DNA of 54,155 bases, from positions 1-54,155 of IMG/VR virus record IMGVR_UViG_3300022602_000132. One strand, given 5' to 3'. Numbering within the stretch: position 1 is the stretch's first letter; the number at the start of each line of letters is the position of its first letter. The notes under the pieces were generated by a model, which worked only from the letters and a program-made list of their open reading frames with translations, ran no database searches and was not told where the DNA came from. The DNA is from a virus (lineage: Duplodnaviria; Caudoviricetes). Positions 7,801 to 50,182 of this stretch are shown here, in pieces. Made by a program: the position numbers and the translations under genes.

Positions 7801-9321
7801 GCTTATATTTACAATAACAATGTAGAAAACCCTGGATTTAATACATACTCATGCAAATTTGATTTAAATGGAATAGATATGTCCAAGGGTGGGGTGTTCT
7901 TTAAATCTGGCGATACAACGTATACTGTAAATCTTTTGCAAATAAATAATTTTACTTCAGAATATGAAGGATCTTCTTTGGCAGCAAACTGGTCTAATCC
8001 TAAAAAATATAATTATTATATAACAGTAAATAAAATTGAAAGTGGAGCTGAATCAATATTGGCGGTTTGTGAAGCTAATGGTATAGCTTTTGATGTTCAG
8101 TCAAGATGGGAAAAGGTTTTAACTAAAGTAAAGCCAACAACAGCAAATCCTCAAGGTTATGCATACTCATATGGGACTGATCAAGAGTATTCGCTAAAAG
8201 TAGTTTTAACTACATCTGACGGAACCGATGGCGAGGTGCCAGGACAGCTTTTAGATGTATACCTAAATAATATTATCATAACTGGATGGCAGATACCAGA
8301 TAACACTGGTAACAACTCTATTATAGATGATGATGGTAACGTAACAACATTAAAGTGGAAATCACCAGGAGTTAACAGTATAACTGGCATAGTTCAGAAA
8401 GTCAATATATCTTCTGATCCAGTTTCATTTGAAGGACAAGGTAATTTTGGATTTGTAACTTCAATAACACCTATGATTCCAGGAACTTTTCCAAATCCAC
8501 CAACGGGTCAAAATTCAGCTGTATCTGCAAATTTAAGAGAAATATATGCTTGCGAAAAACCTTTGATAGAAAGAAGCGTAAGCTATTATTATCAAGATAG
8601 AGAATTTTTAAATGGAATGATTCAGGGAAACAGGTTGTTTAATCAATATAAATCATATATGATGCAAACAAATCCAGAAGTTACAGGAATAAATTATTAT
8701 GATGTTCAATTCCAAACACCTGCAGCTACAAGCGTGGATGTTTTGCCAATCGAGTACCTTTGGTATTATTTTCCAGGCACTCAACCAGTAGATCAACAAT
8801 ACTATCAGAGCCAAATGGTTGATGAATATTCGTTATCATATTCCACACCAATCAATACTGGGTTTAGAGCAAGAATGGCTATAGTAAATAATGTGGGGCA
8901 CATGGTATATCTCACGCATGCATCTGATAGTGTTAATCAATTTACAGTATCATTAAATCTATGGACGCATGAAATAGTTGCTCCGTCCGATGCACAAACA
9001 TTACAAAGAGTTATTGATCAGGCAAATAAAACAGAAGTTATTCAAATTGACTCTCCTTGGATTCAATCCAGACAAACTGCAAACAGAATTATAGATGTTA
9101 TAGCCATAGGAAACGACGGGTTTTCAAAAGACACCCAGCTTCAGGTTTTTGGCAACCCATTGATTCAAGTTGGAGATATAATTAATCTTAGCTATAGTTT
9201 GGCTGGTATTAATAGTGCTAAATACCTAGTGCATCAGGTAGAGCATACATTTAATAAAGGACTAAAGACTACATTAACTATTAACTCGCTCAACAAGTCC
9301 GTAAATCCTACAAATCAATAA
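4876..9321 (+). CDS. Large tail tip/baseplate hub-like protein
   Basis: 1481 aa, position after Dit-like gene, C-terminal 'GNPLIQVGDII...YLVHQVEH' hub-like signature. Confidence 0.65.
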   Translation: MLNSQYANVFSGTNPATSVTLTPVVSAEWNQNLFNQPYITVAGNGIPEDNTGNPSAVGVNDDRTTFPITVNTSQASDQNSYVGIETKKFSMSTNQSILSYSISTANSSPAYKIITYIQTDSDLPIQANAYASGGSTQYGSSTIDVNAFGYVRLITYIGGSDYTDGIGEINYSISFNSYGSNDITSPINIYYTTPQVYETTFFDYQYGSLWPTESPFGFFRPGESYVPSGNSLFSFPSNYREITTNIINGKSGFYSPVTPVIQNPGFTIATAPSPLYKHVFPSDMSVYKYFVSDSATNLSNYSNHQLPQITAIYEPKVNANKIVLKFNTLQTIPNITVKIDGTSIWTGDVKSSVTNQAESDQGVVTLYYNGASWSTSKWSTMPHFSSTGTITPLLNFSKITVIQNSKTTKSDFTDFENSSIYVSQDLTAMHLVEVSPRIEIDISPYVMELDITKALDSKNNYIPISSINPNQASLTLSAIPLTVNDSPVPIFSSQNQSSVLYDMMKKNIKFYFGWNLQNYFLSGENYPNAYIPAGIYWASAWDETDIQTVKVSCFDIVNYMQTTPAPDYVASNKNIFDILTNLFDLVGYTDYDYDSLYKVTQDSYTPMDMYYFFSNSQSGTLYDVMSELFLAHQIGAYVDEYGVMKFLSLTNIMRYHPVTTTFSDASVIQGGYSITNKTKPGSITVSYQEPKVTQSLALQNATNPLVQNSPSFIYTTSNEVVWSQKDADSVGSNYLSDSMMQEDNYFQMNNNSLLDIFHTYLLNNDGYAVIENEIVSFLYKEYLLQQTTDPTVQQKVYPKTDLELSAAINDFIKQNQIGFVPSSFDITHAVANGTSITYTIATGGHNTFQVGMNVFISEVVPTQFNVYGYITAVTENSFTIKSSLASTYSYTSGGKATASLGDNSYDITVTPTGKIANIQRGMFGTFASDHLVLQSDIYEKYLTASNCSTAIVNQSLSVEDNPSVAKIAVTPNSGDAYIYNNNVENPGFNTYSCKFDLNGIDMSKGGVFFKSGDTTYTVNLLQINNFTSEYEGSSLAANWSNPKKYNYYITVNKIESGAESILAVCEANGIAFDVQSRWEKVLTKVKPTTANPQGYAYSYGTDQEYSLKVVLTTSDGTDGEVPGQLLDVYLNNIIITGWQIPDNTGNNSIIDDDGNVTTLKWKSPGVNSITGIVQKVNISSDPVSFEGQGNFGFVTSITPMIPGTFPNPPTGQNSAVSANLREIYACEKPLIERSVSYYYQDREFLNGMIQGNRLFNQYKSYMMQTNPEVTGINYYDVQFQTPAATSVDVLPIEYLWYYFPGTQPVDQQYYQSQMVDEYSLSYSTPINTGFRARMAIVNNVGHMVYLTHASDSVNQFTVSLNLWTHEIVAPSDAQTLQRVIDQANKTEVIQIDSPWIQSRQTANRIIDVIAIGNDGFSKDTQLQVFGNPLIQVGDIINLSYSLAGINSAKYLVHQVEHTFNKGLKTTLTINSLNKSVNPTNQ

Positions 9322-42312: not shown

Positions 42313-44152
42313 TTTTAATATCTTTTTAGATGCTTTAAGTGGTGATGAATTTGATGAAACTCCAGCCAGTCTGGAAACTTTTGTAACTGAAAAAGAATAC
42401 CTTGGTTTACCACCATTATCAGAGTTGCAATATACAATGATTAAAGCATCAACCCAAATCTATAAACGTGAAACTTTGCATAAAATTTATGGAGAAGTAG
42501 AAGGCGAAAAGATATTTAAGCAAACTTGCAATGAAGTTATTTTGCAATTGGGTAAAGGATCTGGAAAAGACTACACATCTACCATTGCTTGTGCATACAT
42601 GGTGCATATGCTTTTGTGCCTTAAAGATCCAGCAAAGTATTATGGCAAACCTCCAGGAGATGCTATTGATATTATTAACATTGCTATTAACGCTGTTCAG
42701 GCTAACCGAGTATTCTTTAAAGGATTTAATCAGCGTATCGAAAAGTCTCCTTGGTTTCAAGGTAAATACATAGCAAAAGCTAACATGGTAGAGTTTGATA
42801 AAGGCGTTACTGTACACTCAGGCCACTCAGAATCTGAAGCTTGGGAAGGATATAACGTTATTGCTGTTATCCTAGATGAAATTTCGGGTTTCGAGTTAGA
42901 ATCTACATCTGGTCATCAGAATGCTAAAACTGCATCATCTATTTATAAGATGTATAAAGCATCTATTACATCTCGTTTCCCAGATTTTGGAAAGCTCGTA
43001 TTGCTTTCTTTCCCACGCTTTAAAAATGACTATATTCAGCAGCGTTATAATGAATCTATAGCTGAAAAAGAAGTTGTATTAAGACATCATAAGTTTAAGG
43101 TTGATCCAGATCTTCCAGATGGAACAACGGGTAATGAATTTGAAATTGAATGGGAAGAAGACCACATCATCTCTTACAAGCTGCCTAGGATATTTGCATT
43201 AAAGCGTCCAACATGGGAAATTAATCCAACGAGAAAAATTGAGGATTTTACAGAAGCTTTTTATACAGATCCACTTGATGCTTTGATGCGTTTTGCATGT
43301 ATGCCACCAGAAGCAACAGATGCGTTCTTTAAAAATCGTGCTGTAATTGAAAAAGCATTTAGCAATCCAAAGCTAAATGTAGATGAGTATGGTAGATTTG
43401 ATGATCATTTTCAACCAGATCCAGATAAGCTTTACTTTGTTCACGTAGACTTAGCCCAAAAACATGACCATTGTGCAGTTGCAATGTCTCACGTTGATGG
43501 CTGGGTAACAATGAAGATTGGCGATAAATACAAGGAAGCAGCACCTAGAATTATAGTTGATGCTGTACGTTTTTGGACCCCGACTGCATCTAAATCTGTA
43601 GATTTTACTGAGGTAAAAGAATACATAATTAGTCTAAGACAGCGGGGATTCAATTTAAAGATGGTTACATTTGACCGATGGAATTCTCATGACATGATGC
43701 AGCAATTAAAAGCACACGGAATAAATACTGAATTACTTTCTGTTGCAAAAAAACACTATGAGGATATGTCTTTGTGTCTTACAGAAGAGCGTGTTTTGGG
43801 CCCACAAATACAATTGCTTATTGATGAATTGTTGCAATTGCGTATTGTTAAGGATAAGGTAGACCACCCTAGAAAAGGCTCTAAAGACCTTTCTGACGCT
43901 GTTTGCGGTGCGATATACAACTCTGTAGCATTAACTCCTCGTGATCTAAATGGTGAGTTAGATATCTATACTTATTCTGGTGTATTTGCTGATGAATTAC
44001 AGCAGCTTAAAGAAGAGTCAGATGCTAGACTTGCAGCAAGTAATCAGATTAGAGTTCCAGAAAAGAAAGATATACCATTAAATTTGCGAGAATACATGGG
44101 GCTGGATGATGATGAAGAAGATTTTAGAGTTGACAGCATGAGAATTCTGTAG
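42305..44152 (+). CDS. Terminase large subunit
   Basis: Walker A GKGSGKD, Walker B ILDE, nuclease HVDLA...TFDRW...KDLSDA. Confidence 0.88.
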   Translation: MSDFNIFLDALSGDEFDETPASLETFVTEKEYLGLPPLSELQYTMIKASTQIYKRETLHKIYGEVEGEKIFKQTCNEVILQLGKGSGKDYTSTIACAYMVHMLLCLKDPAKYYGKPPGDAIDIINIAINAVQANRVFFKGFNQRIEKSPWFQGKYIAKANMVEFDKGVTVHSGHSESEAWEGYNVIAVILDEISGFELESTSGHQNAKTASSIYKMYKASITSRFPDFGKLVLLSFPRFKNDYIQQRYNESIAEKEVVLRHHKFKVDPDLPDGTTGNEFEIEWEEDHIISYKLPRIFALKRPTWEINPTRKIEDFTEAFYTDPLDALMRFACMPPEATDAFFKNRAVIEKAFSNPKLNVDEYGRFDDHFQPDPDKLYFVHVDLAQKHDHCAVAMSHVDGWVTMKIGDKYKEAAPRIIVDAVRFWTPTASKSVDFTEVKEYIISLRQRGFNLKMVTFDRWNSHDMMQQLKAHGINTELLSVAKKHYEDMSLCLTEERVLGPQIQLLIDELLQLRIVKDKVDHPRKGSKDLSDAVCGAIYNSVALTPRDLNGELDIYTYSGVFADELQQLKEESDARLAASNQIRVPEKKDIPLNLREYMGLDDDEEDFRVDSMRIL

Positions 44153-44158
44153 TAAACT
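44130..44158 (+). promoter_or_regulatory. Sigma70-type promoter, leaderless
   Basis: TTGACA-N17-TAAACT, ATG 6 nt later. Confidence 0.6.
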
Positions 44159-44164
44159 ACAGGC

Positions 44165-44452
44165 ATGATAGCAAACGGAACATTAAAAACAATTAATGAT
44201 GATGAAGACATTTATGTGTCTCTAACTCAACTATGTGAGTATTTTACTCAGTCCAGTCTGAATATGAAAAATGAAGCAGATCTTGTTGATAATAAAAATA
44301 AAAGGTATGCACAAGGAATGGTGGACCTCATGTTCACCATTGCTGAAGAAATGATTCAATTTGGAAAATTTGAAGCACAAAAAAGAATGATTGATGGGCC
44401 AGAAGATTTGCTTGCTATGATTGACAAAGCAGGTGGAGGTATAGTAGAATAA
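44165..44452 (+). CDS. Hypothetical protein
   Basis: ORF with own promoter. Confidence 0.55.
   Translation: MIANGTLKTINDDEDIYVSLTQLCEYFTQSSLNMKNEADLVDNKNKRYAQGMVDLMFTIAEEMIQFGKFEAQKRMIDGPEDLLAMIDKAGGGIVE
44421..44450 (+). promoter_or_regulatory. Promoter of tRNA cluster
   Basis: TTGACA-N18-TAGAAT 10 nt before tRNA-Asn. Confidence 0.7.
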
Positions 44453-44460
44453 TACTATAA

Positions 44461-44533
44461 TGGGGTGTAGCTCAGCAGGCAGAGCATTCGACTGTTAATC
44501 GAAGTGTCACAGGTTCGATCCCTGTCACCCCAG
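44461..44533 (+). tRNA. tRNA-Asn (GTT)
   Basis: Acceptor TGGGGTG/CACCCCA, anticodon arm TTCGA-CTGTTAA-TCGAA, GTTCGATC T-loop; CCA not encoded. Confidence 0.92.
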
Positions 44534-44537
44534 CTAA

Positions 44538-44611
44538 GGTCCGTTAGTTCAGTCGGTTAGAACGCCACCCTGTCACGGTGGAGGTCAGGGATTCAAGTTC
44601 CCTACGGATCG
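44538..44611 (+). tRNA. tRNA-Asp (GTC)
   Basis: Acceptor GGTCCGT/ACGGATC, CCACC-CTGTCAC-GGTGG, T-arm AGGGA-TTCAAGT-TCCCT. Confidence 0.9.
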
Positions 44612-44614
44612 CAA

Positions 44615-44752
44615 GGCAACACTTGTATTGCTTCTCAATGGTTGGAAGTTTACGCAAGTATCTAAGTGGACGCTAGCACGACTTAGACGGTATCATCGGA
44701 ATACTCGGTTACGAGACCTTACAGTGTGGTGAAAGATAAACTGATCCGATAC
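44615..44752 (+). ncRNA. Candidate structured ncRNA directly 3' of tRNA-Asp
   Basis: Non-coding gap with stems ACTTGT/GCAAGT, TCTAAGT/ACTTAGA, ATCGGA/TCCGAT enclosing CTCG-GTTA-CGAG and ACC/GGT. Confidence 0.45.
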
Positions 44753-44783
44753 ATTATTAACAAACTAACAGAAAGAGTATAAT

Positions 44784-45020
44784 ATGAATATGATGGCAGA
44801 AAAGACAGAAGAAGTTAAGTCTTATGTACTTGGACCACAAGATCGTTGTGACTCATGTTCTGCGGAAGCTTTAGTTTGGGTGAACGGCGTGGCGGGAGAG
44901 TTGCTATTCTGTGGTCATCATTATAATAAGCATGAAGAAAAGCTTAAAGATTATGCATTTGAAATTGTTGATGAAAGAGATAAGCTGATACAAAATAGAG
45001 CAGTTGGATCTGAAAACTAA
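44784..45020 (+). CDS. Small actinobacterial-type zinc finger (DUF7455-like)
   Basis: 'DRCDSC.AEA.V....GELLFCGHH..KHEEKL...IVDER'. Confidence 0.7.
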   Translation: MNMMAEKTEEVKSYVLGPQDRCDSCSAEALVWVNGVAGELLFCGHHYNKHEEKLKDYAFEIVDERDKLIQNRAVGSEN

Positions 45021-45028
45021 ATAGTTTT

Positions 45029-45103
45029 GCTCTAGTAGCTTAATCTGGTTAAAGCATTAGTCTTATATACTAACGAGTGTCAGTTCAAATCTGACCTAGA
45101 GTA
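45029..45103 (+). tRNA. tRNA-Ile (TAT)
   Basis: Acceptor GCTCTAG/CTAGAGT, TTAGT-CTTATAT-ACTAA, T-arm GTCAG-TTCAAAT-CTGAC. Confidence 0.85.
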
Positions 45104-45104
45104 C

Positions 45105-45178
45105 GGAGCATTAGCTTAGTTGGTAAAAGCCCCGAACTCATAATTCGGTAATCCTCAGTTCAAGTCTGAGATGCTCCA
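45105..45178 (+). tRNA. tRNA with CAT anticodon (elongator Met, or Ile2 if lysidine-modified)
   Basis: Acceptor GGAGCAT/ATGCTCC, CCGAA-CTCATAA-TTCGG, T-arm CTCAG-TTCAAGT-CTGAG; lacks initiator GGG/CCC and 1-72 mismatch. Confidence 0.88.
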
Positions 45179-45197
45179 CTTAAATGAAAAGGAAAAA

Positions 45198-45596
45198 ATG
45201 GAACACAAGGAAGAAATAATTAGATTGAGAAATAATGGTTTGTCGTATAGACAAATCGAAGAAGAGTTAGGATGCTCAAAGAGCACGATATCCTACCATG
45301 TTGGCGAGGGCCAAAAAGAAAAATCTTTGATTAGACAAAAAGAGAACAGAGAAGCAATCAATTCTTATATAAGAGATTATAAGGAAAGTAACCCTTGTAA
45401 AGATTGCAATAATTTTTTTCCATACTATGTAATGGATTTCGATCATTTAAAAGACAAGAGTTTTCAAATTTCAAGGCACAAAAACCACACTAAAAAGCTT
45501 GATGTTGTAAAGCAAGAAATTGATAAATGTGAACTTGTATGCTCAAATTGTCATAGAATAAGAACTAATAATAGAAAGAATGGACTAGACAAATAA
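45198..45596 (+). CDS. HTH-HNH endonuclease (free-standing homing-type)
   Basis: HTH 'GLSYRQIEEELGCSKSTISYH', then CKDC...DFDH...KCELVCSNCHRIRT. Confidence 0.8.
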   Translation: MEHKEEIIRLRNNGLSYRQIEEELGCSKSTISYHVGEGQKEKSLIRQKENREAINSYIRDYKESNPCKDCNNFFPYYVMDFDHLKDKSFQISRHKNHTKKLDVVKQEIDKCELVCSNCHRIRTNNRKNGLDK

Positions 45597-45614
45597 ATGT
45601 GATTGGTGTATACT
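45586..45614 (+). promoter_or_regulatory. Promoter for candidate ncRNA
   Basis: TAGACA ... TATACT, 7 nt upstream of the 12-bp stem start. Confidence 0.55.
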
Positions 45615-45621
45615 ATATTTA

Positions 45622-45745
45622 GGTTGTGAGCGACACACCTTAGGTATGGATATAGTTACGAATAACCAAGTAACCCGTGTGAACAGAGTTCTGCGGGAGA
45701 CTCTTAGGGCAGCCATTCAGTGCTGGAATATCGCTCACAGCCCCA
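45622..45745 (+). ncRNA. Candidate cloverleaf-like ncRNA with 12-bp terminal stem and 3' CCA
   Basis: GGTTGTGAGCGA (45622-33) pairs with TCGCTCACAGCC (45731-42), then CCA; internal arms CACAC/GTGTG (with GTTAC/GTAAC), AGAGT/ACTCT, CAGC/GCTG. Confidence 0.6.
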
Positions 45746-45760
45746 ATTTTAGGAGAACAC

Positions 45761-46345
45761 ATGCCCTTTAAAGATATGTCTAGTATAAAGATATTGGGGG
45801 ATGAAATATATGTATACGAAAACTTTTTATCCAAAAAAGAATTAAGTAAAATAAATAATAAATTAAATAATATACCAGAAGAGCTTTGGAGCAAGATGTG
45901 GGATGCAGAAGGACAAGTTCCAGATGTTAGTCCAAAGATGAGAATAACTAAAAAAATAATCAAAAGATTAAGTAAAAAGGTAAATGGACTTAATGTAAAT
46001 ATAAATGAAGTTTTTAGCAAAATGAAAACTGGAATTAGCTGGGGAGAACATGCTGATAATGCAGACTTTTTGGCGATAAGAAAATTATCTAAAACATTAA
46101 AAGATAAAGAAAAATTTAAGCTTGTTAAAAATTCAAAATATGGTGTTGTTCTTTATATAAACGATGATTATAAAGGTGGGGAAATATACTATGTTGGTCA
46201 AAATATATCTTATAAGCCAAAAGCTGGAGACCTAGTAGTTCATAGTTCAGAGGAAAAATGTAGACATGGGGTTAAACGTGTCACTTCTGGTGTAAGATAT
46301 GCATGGTCAAGTAATTTGCATGAATTACTAAGGATTCCAGAATGA
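45761..46345 (+). CDS. 2OG-Fe(II) oxygenase
   Basis: EHAD...YINDDYKGGEI...RHGVKRVTSGVRY. Confidence 0.85.
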   Translation: MPFKDMSSIKILGDEIYVYENFLSKKELSKINNKLNNIPEELWSKMWDAEGQVPDVSPKMRITKKIIKRLSKKVNGLNVNINEVFSKMKTGISWGEHADNADFLAIRKLSKTLKDKEKFKLVKNSKYGVVLYINDDYKGGEIYYVGQNISYKPKAGDLVVHSSEEKCRHGVKRVTSGVRYAWSSNLHELLRIPE

Positions 46346-46893
46346 ATAATATTTTTTTAGATTTATTTAATGAAGCAAGAGAAAATAAAAAACCATTGCT
46401 TTTAAAAAAAGTTTTACCAAATGTTCCTGGATGGGAAGATTTTATAAAAAATCTTTATAACAAGGCAAATTCAGAGCAATTAATGAAGTATGGTCATGGC
46501 AGAAATTTAAAGGATATAGCAGTCTATAATTATTTGGATCCATTTGTTGCTTTTGCAGCAAACACAGAAGATGAAAATGGTTTAAAGGGATTAAAAAATG
46601 TTACTGATTTTCTAAATATATACTTGGGTGCTGAGTTTTTCAATATTAAATCAATTATAAATTTTGCGGGGTATGAGGCTGATTACTTTAAGCATGAAGA
46701 TCCAAATGATGTTATATCTTGGCATTGCATAGGTACTGTAGAATGGCGTATATACAACGGTGATGAGTATGAGTCATATCATCTAAATCCAGGAGATATA
46801 TTTTATTGTCCCAAAGGAACAGTTCATCAAATAGTTGTGTCTGAGCCAAGAGCATCTATAGTTTTAGACTATTTCAATCCTCTAGACAATTGA
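46342..46893 (+). CDS. JmjC/cupin-4-like oxygenase
   Basis: KHED..DV...IGTVEWRIY...LNPGDIFYCPKGTVH. Confidence 0.75.
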   Translation: MNNIFLDLFNEARENKKPLLLKKVLPNVPGWEDFIKNLYNKANSEQLMKYGHGRNLKDIAVYNYLDPFVAFAANTEDENGLKGLKNVTDFLNIYLGAEFFNIKSIINFAGYEADYFKHEDPNDVISWHCIGTVEWRIYNGDEYESYHLNPGDIFYCPKGTVHQIVVSEPRASIVLDYFNPLDN

Positions 46894-46910
46894 TGTATAA
46901 TTAGTCTATT

Positions 46911-47351
46911 ATGACAGATGCACACAAAGCTAAACTAAATATACATTTAATAACTTCAATTCCAGAACATGCTCCACGTGAAGATGATCCAAATTATCAT
47001 CTATTTAATAATGCTAAAAATAGAATTAAAAGGCAGGGTCTTTGGAAGTGTATTATTAATGATGACCTATGTTCTGGAGAACCAGAACTTCATCATAGTT
47101 TTATAGAATTTAGTCAGATTAACGACATGGATCCAAATAAAGTGGCAGCAGCATTTGGGCTACATTTTGAGAATGATCAAGATTTTCAAAACTTTATTGA
47201 AAGTCCAGGAAATCTAGAGGTATTATGTGCTGCTCATCATAGAACACATTTTGGTATTCATCAAATTCCCGCACCTTTGTGGGAGACATTTCGCTTTAGG
47301 AAAGCAGGAACTGAGCCTGCTGCTGAGGTAATAACAGAACAAGATAAGTGA
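46911..47351 (+). CDS. HNH-like protein
   Basis: C-x6-C...ELHH...NLEVLCAAHHR..FGIH. Confidence 0.55.
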   Translation: MTDAHKAKLNIHLITSIPEHAPREDDPNYHLFNNAKNRIKRQGLWKCIINDDLCSGEPELHHSFIEFSQINDMDPNKVAAAFGLHFENDQDFQNFIESPGNLEVLCAAHHRTHFGIHQIPAPLWETFRFRKAGTEPAAEVITEQDK

Positions 47352-49415: not shown

Positions 49416-49488
49416 GCCTTCGTAGCTCAGTGGATAGAGCATACGGTTTCTACCCGTCAGGTCGGGAGTTCAAATCTCTCCGAGGGCA
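49416..49488 (+). tRNA. tRNA-Arg (TCT)
   Basis: Acceptor GCCTTCG/CGAGGGC, D-arm GCTC..GAGC, ACGG-TTTCTAC-CCGT, T-arm GGGAG-TTCAAAT-CTCTC. Confidence 0.88.
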
Positions 49489-50182
49489 CTATACTTTCTT
49501 GAAGTGTCTTCATTCTCTCGTTAGTTGAGAATTGATGTAGGTACGAGAAATGATCTGGATGGCTTGGGTCATAAGGATCTTCGTTTGAAATATGATGTTT
49601 AAATAAATTATTATCAACATAAAATTTAGAGCGTATGATATTAGAGTGAGTATATCTTATGCCAGATTTGACAGGATTGACTCCATGAGGAGTTTCTACA
49701 CAATGTACTACTAAGTCTCCTGAAATAGCTTTATAGTTAATTCCATATTCAGGATAAGATATTTCTCCTCCTTCGTAATCATCATTTAAATAAATTATAA
49801 ATGCCAAAGGATTTAGAAGTATTTCTTCTTTATCTCCAATAAAATCTTTATCAACTATCATCTCTAAAAGCGGGTTCATATGATTAACAAAATCAATATG
49901 TATTTTTTGATGATCGCCCCGATATCTTACTTGAATTTCAGATATAGGCTCAAAGTGTATATCTCCTTCAAAACAAGAGCGTAATCTTTCGTCATATTTT
50001 TTTATTGATTCGGGGTATATCTGATGTTGATCTACTGCAGAATTCATGATAGAATCAATCTCTAGTCTTATACTTGATATTTCTTCGGGGGATAAAAAGT
50101 TATGATAAACAAACGCTTCATCATGAAGTTTTTCAAATTTATCATTAAGCTTTATATCCATATGACTAGAAAGAATTGACAT
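49457..50182 (-). CDS. 2OG-Fe(II) oxygenase (only convincing minus-strand gene)
   Basis: IHID...YLNDDYEGGEI...PHGVNPVKSGIRY; GGAG SD on minus strand. Confidence 0.85.
   Translation of the reverse strand: MSILSSHMDIKLNDKFEKLHDEAFVYHNFLSPEEISSIRLEIDSIMNSAVDQHQIYPESIKKYDERLRSCFEGDIHFEPISEIQVRYRGDHQKIHIDFVNHMNPLLEMIVDKDFIGDKEEILLNPLAFIIYLNDDYEGGEISYPEYGINYKAISGDLVVHCVETPHGVNPVKSGIRYTHSNIIRSKFYVDNNLFKHHISNEDPYDPSHPDHFSYLHQFSTNERMKTLQESIVPSERFELPT

Follow-up and report, generated by a model that had tools for sequence, protein, structure and literature searches.

A conserved small RNA of uncultured phages carries a core complementary to helix 69 of 23S ribosomal RNA

The locus described here raises the question of whether a short stretch of phage DNA (positions 45586-45745), which begins with a promoter-like sequence and ends in a long stem followed by CCA, encodes an RNA of its own, and what such an RNA could be for. 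The DNA is the IMG/VR virus record IMGVR_UViG_3300022602_000132 (Duplodnaviria; Caudoviricetes), which is about half complete and whose whole analysed length of 54,155 nucleotides (nt) is referred to as the window. An initial annotation had proposed an unannotated, discrete and structured RNA, possibly a mimic of transfer RNA (tRNA) that serves as a decoy. The first part of this proposal is supported by the fold, by a family of related elements, by the covariation of the terminal stem and by the tRNA and promoter context. It is well supported that the element represents a new family of structured RNAs, of which more than 50 distinct members were collected, even if the pairing with ribosomal RNA (rRNA) considered below is not its function. 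It is a conserved small RNA of uncultured, mostly lake-water phages, and its best reading, to which we assign a probability of about one half on the basis of sequence comparison and modelling, is that of an antisense RNA that would have the 50S subunit or nascent 23S rRNA as its target.

The terminal stem (P1) is present as initially described, with 12 base pairs (bp) closing a multi-arm fold and with CCA directly after it (Table 1). In the window, P1 consists of 11 Watson-Crick pairs and one U.G pair, and in the predicted fold two inner domains meet at the junction that it closes. For 45621-45748 the minimum free energy is -44.3 kcal/mol (z -3.33), a stability equalled by none of 200 shuffled sequences. 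The 5' end of the RNA is probably at 45622, and its 3' end is bracketed between 45742 and the T-run at 45747-45750.

Relatives of the element were sought in loci related to the window, for which 80 of the at least 599 matches to an upstream terminase-like protein were fetched. Homologues are found with blastn and nhmmer in 21 of 105 other loci, with identities of 73-91%, and the homology of these relatives starts and stops exactly at the terminal stem. The alignment of the 16 distinct sequences collected by homology shows compensatory changes at 10 of the 12 stem pairs, and the covariance model built from it (R1) gives 40 matches in 81 sources, including far more divergent members. The pattern of the conserved core matches 87 IMG/VR stretches, compared with 2 for a control with the reversed pattern. 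From all loci, 59 distinct motif-bearing sequences were extracted, in 54 of which the terminal stem reaches 10 bp or more; their lengths are 77-136 nt.

The homologue covariation check asked for by the initial annotation gives a clear outcome. When 57 distinct members are aligned to R1, all 12 pairs of P1 change on both sides, with 99.7% of the cells paired; the observed values are reached by none of 500 shuffles, and no slid register comes near them. The same cells include 17 G.U pairs as against 2 non-pairs, which argues for the + strand and against its complement; in the arrays the element is encoded on the same strand as the tRNAs. Covariation is claimed for P1 only, and none for P2, P4 and P5; the two small inner helices of R1 are poorly supported in the 57-sequence alignment. 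The sequence of P1 and most of the 3' half vary freely. Conservation is concentrated in a core near the 5' side, CUUAGG-(2-7 nt)-AUAGUUAC, which is the most conserved segment of the family, and in the short blocks GAGU, GAGA, GUGCA and GGAAU on its 3' side.

This family is one of phages rather than of cellular genomes, as only one true member (L193, in a tRNA array on a contig of a metagenome-assembled genome, MAG) is found among the five pattern matches in a scan of one genome for each of 185,579 species. In a cultured-phage database neither the 3-kb region nor the element has a match, and the family core has only chance matches inside coding genes. At the gathering score of Rfam 15, the window yields its five tRNAs only and eight related loci yield tRNAs only; at E<=10, the search over 45500-45850 returns one irrelevant weak match outside the element. 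The window stretch occurs in 21 DNA runs, all of which are lake, freshwater or unspecified metagenomes. A set of 8495 candidate structured RNAs predicted from IMG/VR is reported by Fremin et al. 2023 (PMC10690425), and the family may already sit among these candidates without a name.

The position of the element relative to tRNA genes is informative about its ends. Among the 54 distinct elements, a tRNA lies at most 6 nt upstream in 37 (exactly 2 nt in 28 of those) and at most 12 nt downstream in 34, mostly 3-7 nt off; tRNAs are present on both sides in 27 and on at least one side in 44. The element thus sits in tRNA arrays at tRNA-like spacing, as exemplified by L053, where a tRNA-Leu ends at 8839, the stem of the element spans 8842-8964 and a tRNA-Gly starts at 8970. 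The other 17 elements, including that of the window, have no close upstream tRNA, and in 15 of these a TAnnnT hexamer is found 4-10 nt before the stem; many of these promoter-type relatives also have TTGACA 17 nt further upstream. The TAGACA/TATACT pair noticed in the window is present as described. A scan of 44000-47000 finds 15 promoter-like sites, compared with 12.7 +/- 4.5 in shuffled sequences, so that the match alone is not above chance, and the support for the promoter comes from the relatives without a close upstream tRNA, which carry their hexamers at the same place.

In the family, the 5' end is therefore set either by a promoter (7 nt upstream in the window) or by a spacing of 0-2 nt after a tRNA, and the 3' end lies 2-11 nt ahead of the next tRNA or ahead of a T-run, which often comes after the stem and the CC in relatives without a following tRNA. 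Two separate routes thus lead to the same start, the first stem base, which shows that the RNA is an independent unit and supports the initially proposed promoter. A discrete RNA is also indicated because 44 of the 54 elements adjoin a tRNA and 15 of the 17 promoter-type elements have the -10 hexamer before the stem, and the occupation of tRNA slots in arrays makes tRNA-like processing of the ends plausible. These contexts bear directly on the possibility that the element is a 5' untranslated region or riboswitch of the 2OG-Fe(II) oxygenase gene at 45761, which the initial annotation had named as the outcome that would undo its proposal. In the window, the AGGAG and ATG of this gene do follow the stem within 9 nt, as would be expected of a leader. 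Nevertheless, in most relatives it is a tRNA and not an ORF that follows the element (within 12 nt in 34 of 54), the downstream gene is not conserved, and 25 fetched distant homologues of the oxygenase (~25-54% identity) yielded no element with blastn, nhmmer or a motif regular expression. The element has no conserved place upstream of a conserved gene, its downstream feature being variable, and a role as a leader is hardly credible.

The tRNA-like features of the element can be divided into those that belong to the family and those peculiar to this copy. The likeness in length between the 12-bp stem and an acceptor plus T minihelix holds for the family, as P1 has 12 bp in 29 of the 54 members, 13 in 13, 14 in 7, 11 in 4 and 15 in one, and so does the tRNA-like context. 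The CCA end and the analogy with the G-1:C73 end of tRNA-His, both prominent in the initial description, are not conserved: the base after the stem is C in 43 of 54 members and the tail is CC in 33, and the full CCA is present in 2 of 54. The statement that none of the five tRNAs of the window encodes CCA holds, each of them ending in N73-C followed by a base other than C. In these tRNA genes (44461-45179 and 49416-49489) the discriminator base and one C are encoded before the sequences diverge, so that CCA is partly encoded, and the common CC tail of the element has the same form as this N73-C end.

It follows from the same observations how a tRNA mimic or decoy is to be judged, in which a CCA minihelix would act as a sink for anticodon nucleases, synthetases, the CCA-adding enzyme or tRNA-directed defence proteins. 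The length of the stem, the occupation of tRNA slots and the C or CC tail, which resembles the N73-C74 of the window tRNAs, are what such a mimic would have. On the other hand, full CCA ends are rare, and a T-loop, a D-arm and an anticodon arm are lacking, the absence of a canonical T-loop and anticodon arm having been seen at the outset. ARAGORN, run for both tRNA and transfer-messenger RNA (tmRNA), finds five tRNAs in the window and none in the element (no call at 45586-45745), and Rfam has no family there, with no match to RF00005 even at E<=10; a tmRNA is found in the window by neither ARAGORN nor Rfam. The stem is an unbroken 12-bp helix. Moreover, it is the internal core that is conserved, the stem being variable in sequence, and the same core occurs in the 3' ends of messenger RNAs (mRNAs) without any minihelix, as described below. 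Nothing points to anticodon nucleases or synthetases as targets, and the core pairs poorly with the tRNAs of these phages. A decoy is thus improbable.

What the core resembles is rRNA, a likeness that the initial annotation had not noticed. It is the reverse complement of helix 69 of 23S rRNA (loop and 3' strand) and of the linker that follows this helix. The lead was provided by L194, one of the five matches of the genome scan, which is a 23S rRNA gene fragment of a sphingomonad with the exact 19-nt motif on its antisense strand (19 of 19 positions). The matched rRNA stretch, GUAACUAUA..CCUAAG, comprises helix 69 and the linker after it, and the assignment is anchored on U1911, U1915 and U1917, which are placed in helix 69 in a passage of PMC5449589. 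When compared with the full 23S reference (L197, whose record is offset by one from the standard numbering), the commonest variant of the core agrees with antisense ~1909-1929 at 19 of 21 positions with one gap, which we read as a potential duplex of 19 bp with one G.U pair and one bulged G. The window copy matches the helix 69 region in two blocks, ACCUUAGG and AUAGUUACG, with 7 non-matching nt between them.

This complementarity is above chance. An RNAduplex run of the motif along the whole of 23S rRNA places the best site in helix 69 for 51 of the 54 elements, with a mean duplex energy of -22.2 kcal/mol and -24.1 kcal/mol for the commonest variant. Shuffled motifs reach -14.7 +/- 1.5 kcal/mol on 23S (n = 108, best -19.0), so that the observed mean is better by ~5 standard deviations, and on 16S rRNA the motif has a mean of -14.0 kcal/mol. 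The longest exact antisense match to the whole rrn operon falls at 1908-1921 for 41 of 54 elements. Against 308 distinct tRNAs of these phages, the best energy of the motif is -13.8 kcal/mol, compared with -24.1 kcal/mol on helix 69. According to the predicted folds, the motif supplies a hairpin with its 5' strand and its loop, which presents the complementary bases in accessible form: GUUA lies in the hairpin loop in 42 of 54 minimum-energy folds, GUUACA has a mean unpaired probability of 0.84-0.89, and the CUUAGG part is predicted to be about half paired. Pairing of the loop with tRNAs, including the anticodon loop of tRNA-Tyr, was also considered as a candidate and set aside as weak, the value given above being the best of the 308.

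The same antisense segment is also present on other phage scaffolds, which R1 does not recognise, save for weak matches on one type through the core. In this type (L108, L151 and L166) the motif hairpin has no terminal stem and is followed by an intrinsic terminator. In L108 and L151 it begins 2 nt past the tandem stops of a gene for a major head protein (the match to phrog_3922, 3.4e-28, was obtained for L108), and L166 has the end of a related ORF. A 20-nt sequence perfectly antisense to canonical helix 69 plus linker is found in 8 IMG/VR stretches, compared with 1 for the reversed control; one of the eight is true 23S ribosomal DNA (rDNA) and the other seven have no other 23S likeness. Five of these contigs (L209, L210, L212, L213 and L215, representing two types of sequence) have the 20-mer beginning 1 nt past the stop codon of an ORF; in L209 this ORF is a virion structural protein gene (phrog_1623, 9e-88), and the other four contigs share the flanking sequence. 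This second scaffold consists of a 6-bp hairpin with a 14-nt loop and then a strong terminator, and its structural protein has no detectable kinship with the head protein of L108 (BLASTP E 0.31). In L214 the perfect 20-nt segment (1489-1508) lies directly ahead of an intrinsic terminator, with TATAGT ~55 nt upstream, and this may be a third scaffold, in the form of a small RNA that stands alone. In L211 the 20-mer lies ~68 nt past a tRNA array, in a context that folds no more stably than shuffled sequences (z -0.3).

The 3' strand of the hairpin differs between the scaffolds and always compensates, and the 5' strand and the loop stay antisense to 23S rRNA. This is the pattern that is expected if selection keeps the complementarity with helix 69. 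In L108 (10996-11056), L151, L166, L209 (1902-1985), L210, L212, L213 and L215 the hairpin begins 1-5 nt beyond the stop codon of the major structural protein gene, a distance at which it would still be covered by the terminating ribosome, to be set free when the subunits separate. In the cultured-phage collection, the perfect 20-mer matches only 23S rDNA within phage records. Many small records filed as phage are, or contain, bacterial 23S rDNA (among the records concerned are PQ800148.1, KT319643.1, KM209255.1 and, at 82.2-84.7 kb, MZ092003.1), and at the end of the record of Paenibacillus phage Pd_22F the 2.5 kb around the 20-mer are 23S.

A possible longer kinship with 23S rRNA appears when the elements are circularly permuted, that is, when the terminal stem is removed and the 3' part is placed ahead of the 5' part. 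Permuted L072, L088 and L130 are colinear with antisense 23S ~1909-2007, the helix 71 hairpin being missing, with Smith-Waterman z values of 5.4-5.9 (L072, L130) and nhmmer E values of 1.6e-4 to 1.4e-3 (all three). The same stretch of L072 also aligns to a different antisense region of 23S, and because these two alignments conflict the long-range homology is uncertain; descent from an inverted rDNA fragment, or additional pairing, is a hint from sequence and not a result.

These alignments are relevant to the alternative that the core binds a protein or a ligand or is catalytic, its 23S likeness being a relic of captured rDNA or a coincidence and not a site of pairing. The scatter of the GAGU, GAGA, GUGCA and GGAAU blocks over a multi-helix fold is as seen in ribozymes and aptamers, part of the core is paired inside P3, and the permuted colinearity of L072, L088 and L130 looks like ancestry. 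Descent, however, does not explain why unrelated scaffolds bear only the segment antisense to helix 69, once as a perfect 20-mer, with compensating strands specific to each scaffold. The long-range homology is itself made doubtful by the conflicting alignments of L072, and neither the window nor the eight related loci have an Rfam ribozyme or riboswitch match. This alternative is therefore considered unlikely.

The reading as an antisense RNA can be developed into a mechanism, which is a proposal throughout. Helix 69 forms the intersubunit bridge B2a and contacts the A-site and P-site tRNAs, the release factors and the recycling factor. The RNA would be excised from the tRNA operon by tRNA-processing enzymes, with RNase P acting at the downstream tRNA and perhaps at the minihelix-like stem of the RNA itself, together with 3' trimming, and the terminal stem would serve as a protective clamp. 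The exposed loop would then kiss the loop of helix 69, which is accessible on nascent 23S rRNA and on 50S subunits that are not joined. From there pairing would extend by strand invasion, the 5' strand of the hairpin taking as its partners the 3' strand of helix 69 and the linker; for the commonest variant the duplex could reach 19 bp, interrupted by one bulge and including one G.U. The likeliest outcome would be that the bridge element of free or immature large subunits is occupied or trapped, so that subunit joining or 50S assembly is disturbed; alternatively, 50S subunits could be tethered, for example those released at the ends of capsid messages. Production from tRNA operons or from abundant late messages fits a target that, like the ribosome, is stoichiometric and very abundant. 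As a tentative generalisation, which we consider almost as likely as not, phages would encode a class of anti-ribosome RNAs in which a loop pairing with helix 69, the central intersubunit bridge, is displayed either on a stem-clamped RNA of tRNA operons or on the 3' ends of the most abundant late messages, and which would seize, block or tether the 50S subunit or nascent 23S rRNA. The feasibility of antisense invasion of helix 69 is supported by a 13-mer peptide nucleic acid (PNA) that is reported, in a passage of the review PMC10777018, to strand-invade this hairpin, to block translation and to inhibit the growth of E. coli.

Several points weigh against this reading. The pattern with which the 54-sequence set was collected required CTT[AG]G and GTTAC, so that the invariance of the core in this set is partly by construction; unbiased support for the core comes from the invariance of ATAGTTAC in the 16 homology-collected sequences and from covariance-model matches outside the pattern. 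The comparisons cover the canonical and L194 23S sequences as stand-ins for those of the hosts. In the window copy only 9 + 8 nt pair, with an energy of -19.8 kcal/mol, which is slightly past the best of the 108 shuffled motifs. The single-sequence statistics are modest, with nhmmer E values of 0.005-0.1 against antisense 23S for most members, in which the match is confined to the core; an exact 11-mer antisense match is reached by 13 of 200 shuffles, and with RNAduplex the whole elements give the same mean on 23S (-55.5) as shuffled ones (-55.5). As to the longer kinship, the Smith-Waterman z is 1.1 for the window, L110 and L133 align best elsewhere, and L053 and L054 have weak sense-strand matches at 23S ~2724-2803. 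The exact 19-nt target type is present in none of 301 genomes of the phylum of the MAG with L193, a count in which the share of genomes holding any 23S was not controlled; the MAG itself has no 23S match. Among the runs listed for the window stretch, none is of RNA.

On the side of the target, helix 69 is buried in 70S ribosomes, and on mature ribosomes the m3-pseudouridine at 1915 would break one central pair, for which reasons free 50S subunits or nascent 23S rRNA are the likely targets. A purely inhibitory role is also paradoxical, as phages need working ribosomes.

Table 1. Positions of the RNA element, its parts and the adjoining ORF in the window
Feature	Position	Strand	Description
ORF with helix-turn-helix (HTH) domain and C-terminal Cys/His motif	45171-45596	+	HNH-like by eye; inserted between tRNA-Met (45105-45179) and the RNA
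-35-like hexamer TAGACA	45586-45591	+	overlaps the end of the upstream ORF
-10-like hexamer TATACT	45609-45614	+	17-nt spacer after TAGACA; 7 nt ahead of the first stem base
Small RNA	45622-45745	+	~121-nt structure and CC(A) tail; fold, covariance-model match of 130.6 bits, E 1e-29
P1 5' strand, GGTTGTGAGCGA	45622-45633	+	12-bp terminal stem
ACCUUAGG	45637-45644	+	antisense to the 23S linker that directly follows helix 69 (~1924-1931, E. coli numbering)
P3 hairpin (UGGAUAU / AUAACCA)	45647-45668	+	predicted fold; loop displays AGUUACGA
AUAGUUACG	45652-45660	+	exact antisense of the helix 69 loop and closing bases (~1909-1917, including U1911, U1915 and U1917)
P4 hairpin	45674-45697	+	holds the conserved GAGU; fold and alignment
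GCCAUUCAGUGCUGG	45712-45726	+	resembles antisense of 23S CCUGCACGAAUGGC (~1962-1975); weaker evidence, 13 of 15 positions with one gap
P1 3' strand, TCGCTCACAGCC	45731-45742	+	pairs with 45622-45633
3' tail	45743-45750	+	CCA (45743-45745), then AUUUU; CC is the conserved part

Within the RNA of the window, the GUAAC at 45670-45674, right after P3, repeats the bases of the helix 69 loop and is complementary to the GUUAC of the element's own loop. An internal GUAAC-GUUAC pairing could compete with the proposed target; it is present only in a window-like subgroup (the window, L032, L053 and L054).

The start of the HTH ORF upstream of the RNA overlaps the last 9 nt of the tRNA-Met gene. Between the upstream tRNA and the element there is a hot spot for insertions, as is seen in the window (45105-45621) and in L027 (8825-9381), L051 (2984-3522) and L041 (8859-10568). 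The inserts of the latter three loci comprise, by eye, an HNH-like ORF, an Hsp20-like ORF and two ORFs like sugar-nucleotide enzymes; among the junction ORFs, the Pfam scan covered that of the window alone. At least in the window and in L041, where ORFs intervene, a promoter-like site precedes the element.

The region of rDNA that encodes helix 69 is a classical hot spot for introns and endonucleases, and the I-CeuI site presumably spans the same 23S rDNA bases as the motif. It could thus be supposed that the conserved feature acts as DNA, being a homing-endonuclease target or a landing site of mobile elements copied from this region, and the endonuclease-like ORFs directly upstream in the window and in L051 would fit such a site, as would the location of SegB inside the T4 tRNA cluster, adjoining rnaC and rnaD. 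The signals of the family are nevertheless those of an RNA (compensatory pairs, strand-specific G.U pairs, 5' ends at promoters or in tRNA slots, and 3' ends at terminators or tRNAs), and the junction insertions are of unrelated kinds. Selection would also not keep a cleavage site that has no function of its own. A role at the level of DNA is accordingly very improbable.

Downstream of the RNA, the window has two consecutive oxygenase-type genes (45761-46893), whose adjacency to the RNA is not conserved in relatives. The first encodes the 2OG-Fe(II) oxygenase (PF13640, 5.7e-7) and the second a cupin with a weak JmjC_2 match (PF08007, 9e-5), a family that includes ribosomal protein hydroxylases. 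In related phages, slots of the tRNA arrays are also filled by other recurrent non-tRNA stretches of 80-173 nt, which form at least two or three further groups. The members of each group share sequence: L154:163-293 with L158:3628-3758; L154:366-534 with L158:3909-4063 and L180:8060-8232; and L178:2190-2269 with L182:5112-5251. These stretches have no Rfam match at the gathering score and no notable antisense match to rRNA.

If the reading as an antisense RNA is correct, phages would steer the host ribosome with an RNA that is aimed at one of its most conserved and central hairpins. This would be the first natural antisense RNA known against bacterial rRNA and a new layer of phage translation control, and a function would be at hand for one of the stable RNAs, other than tRNAs, whose presence in phage tRNA clusters has long been a puzzle. 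It would also point to an antisense design of broad spectrum, reached by natural evolution, against a target already validated for antibacterials. Because the RNA is ~120 nt long and the target is universal, the idea is directly testable with E. coli ribosomes. The literature search returned no report of a phage RNA antisense to rRNA, nor of a natural antisense RNA against bacterial rRNA.

By context, the nearest analogues are the T4 species 1 and species 2 RNAs (rnaC and rnaD), which like the family are small stable RNAs of ~120-140 nt, of unknown function, in a phage tRNA cluster; they lie 1-6 nt from their neighbours and beside a homing endonuclease gene. They have no likeness to the family in sequence, fold or model; R1 has no match in the T4 region L191 at E<=10. 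Furthermore, rnaC has a canonical T-arm, which the family lacks, and the longest rRNA antisense matches of rnaC and rnaD are 9 nt, no better than shuffles.

Small nucleolar RNAs (snoRNAs) and archaeal guide RNAs are also small RNAs in which 10-20 nt are antisense to conserved rRNA sites, and the pseudouridines of eukaryotic helix 69 are guide-directed. The family differs from them, as C/D or H/ACA boxes are not evident, without a formal test having been made, and as its complementarity runs continuously over the loop and leaves no pseudouridylation pocket; to our knowledge, bacteria have no partner proteins for guides of this kind. The tRNA-shaped 3' element of turnip crinkle virus binds the large subunit by shape mimicry, and this binding at the 3' end of a viral message is reminiscent of the variants after capsid-gene stop codons. 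Such plant virus elements are eukaryotic, and they differ from the family in relying on shape and not on Watson-Crick antisense pairing.

A resemblance in mode of action would be with trans-acting antisense RNAs such as CopA/CopT and RNA I/RNA II, whose interaction starts with a loop-loop kiss. The family shares with them a loop that is complementary to the loop of its target, a complementarity that continues along one strand of the stem, and a stable scaffold or terminator beside it. Unlike in these systems, the proposed target is rRNA and not an mRNA or a primer, it is encoded in another genome, and the RNA comes from a tRNA operon. The 13-mer PNA of Kulik et al. 2017, as described in PMC10777018, is man-made, short and uncharged, and the relevant passage of that review describes no natural counterpart; it nevertheless shares with the proposed phage RNA the same target hairpin, and it is reported to act by strand invasion of H69, with a block of translation.

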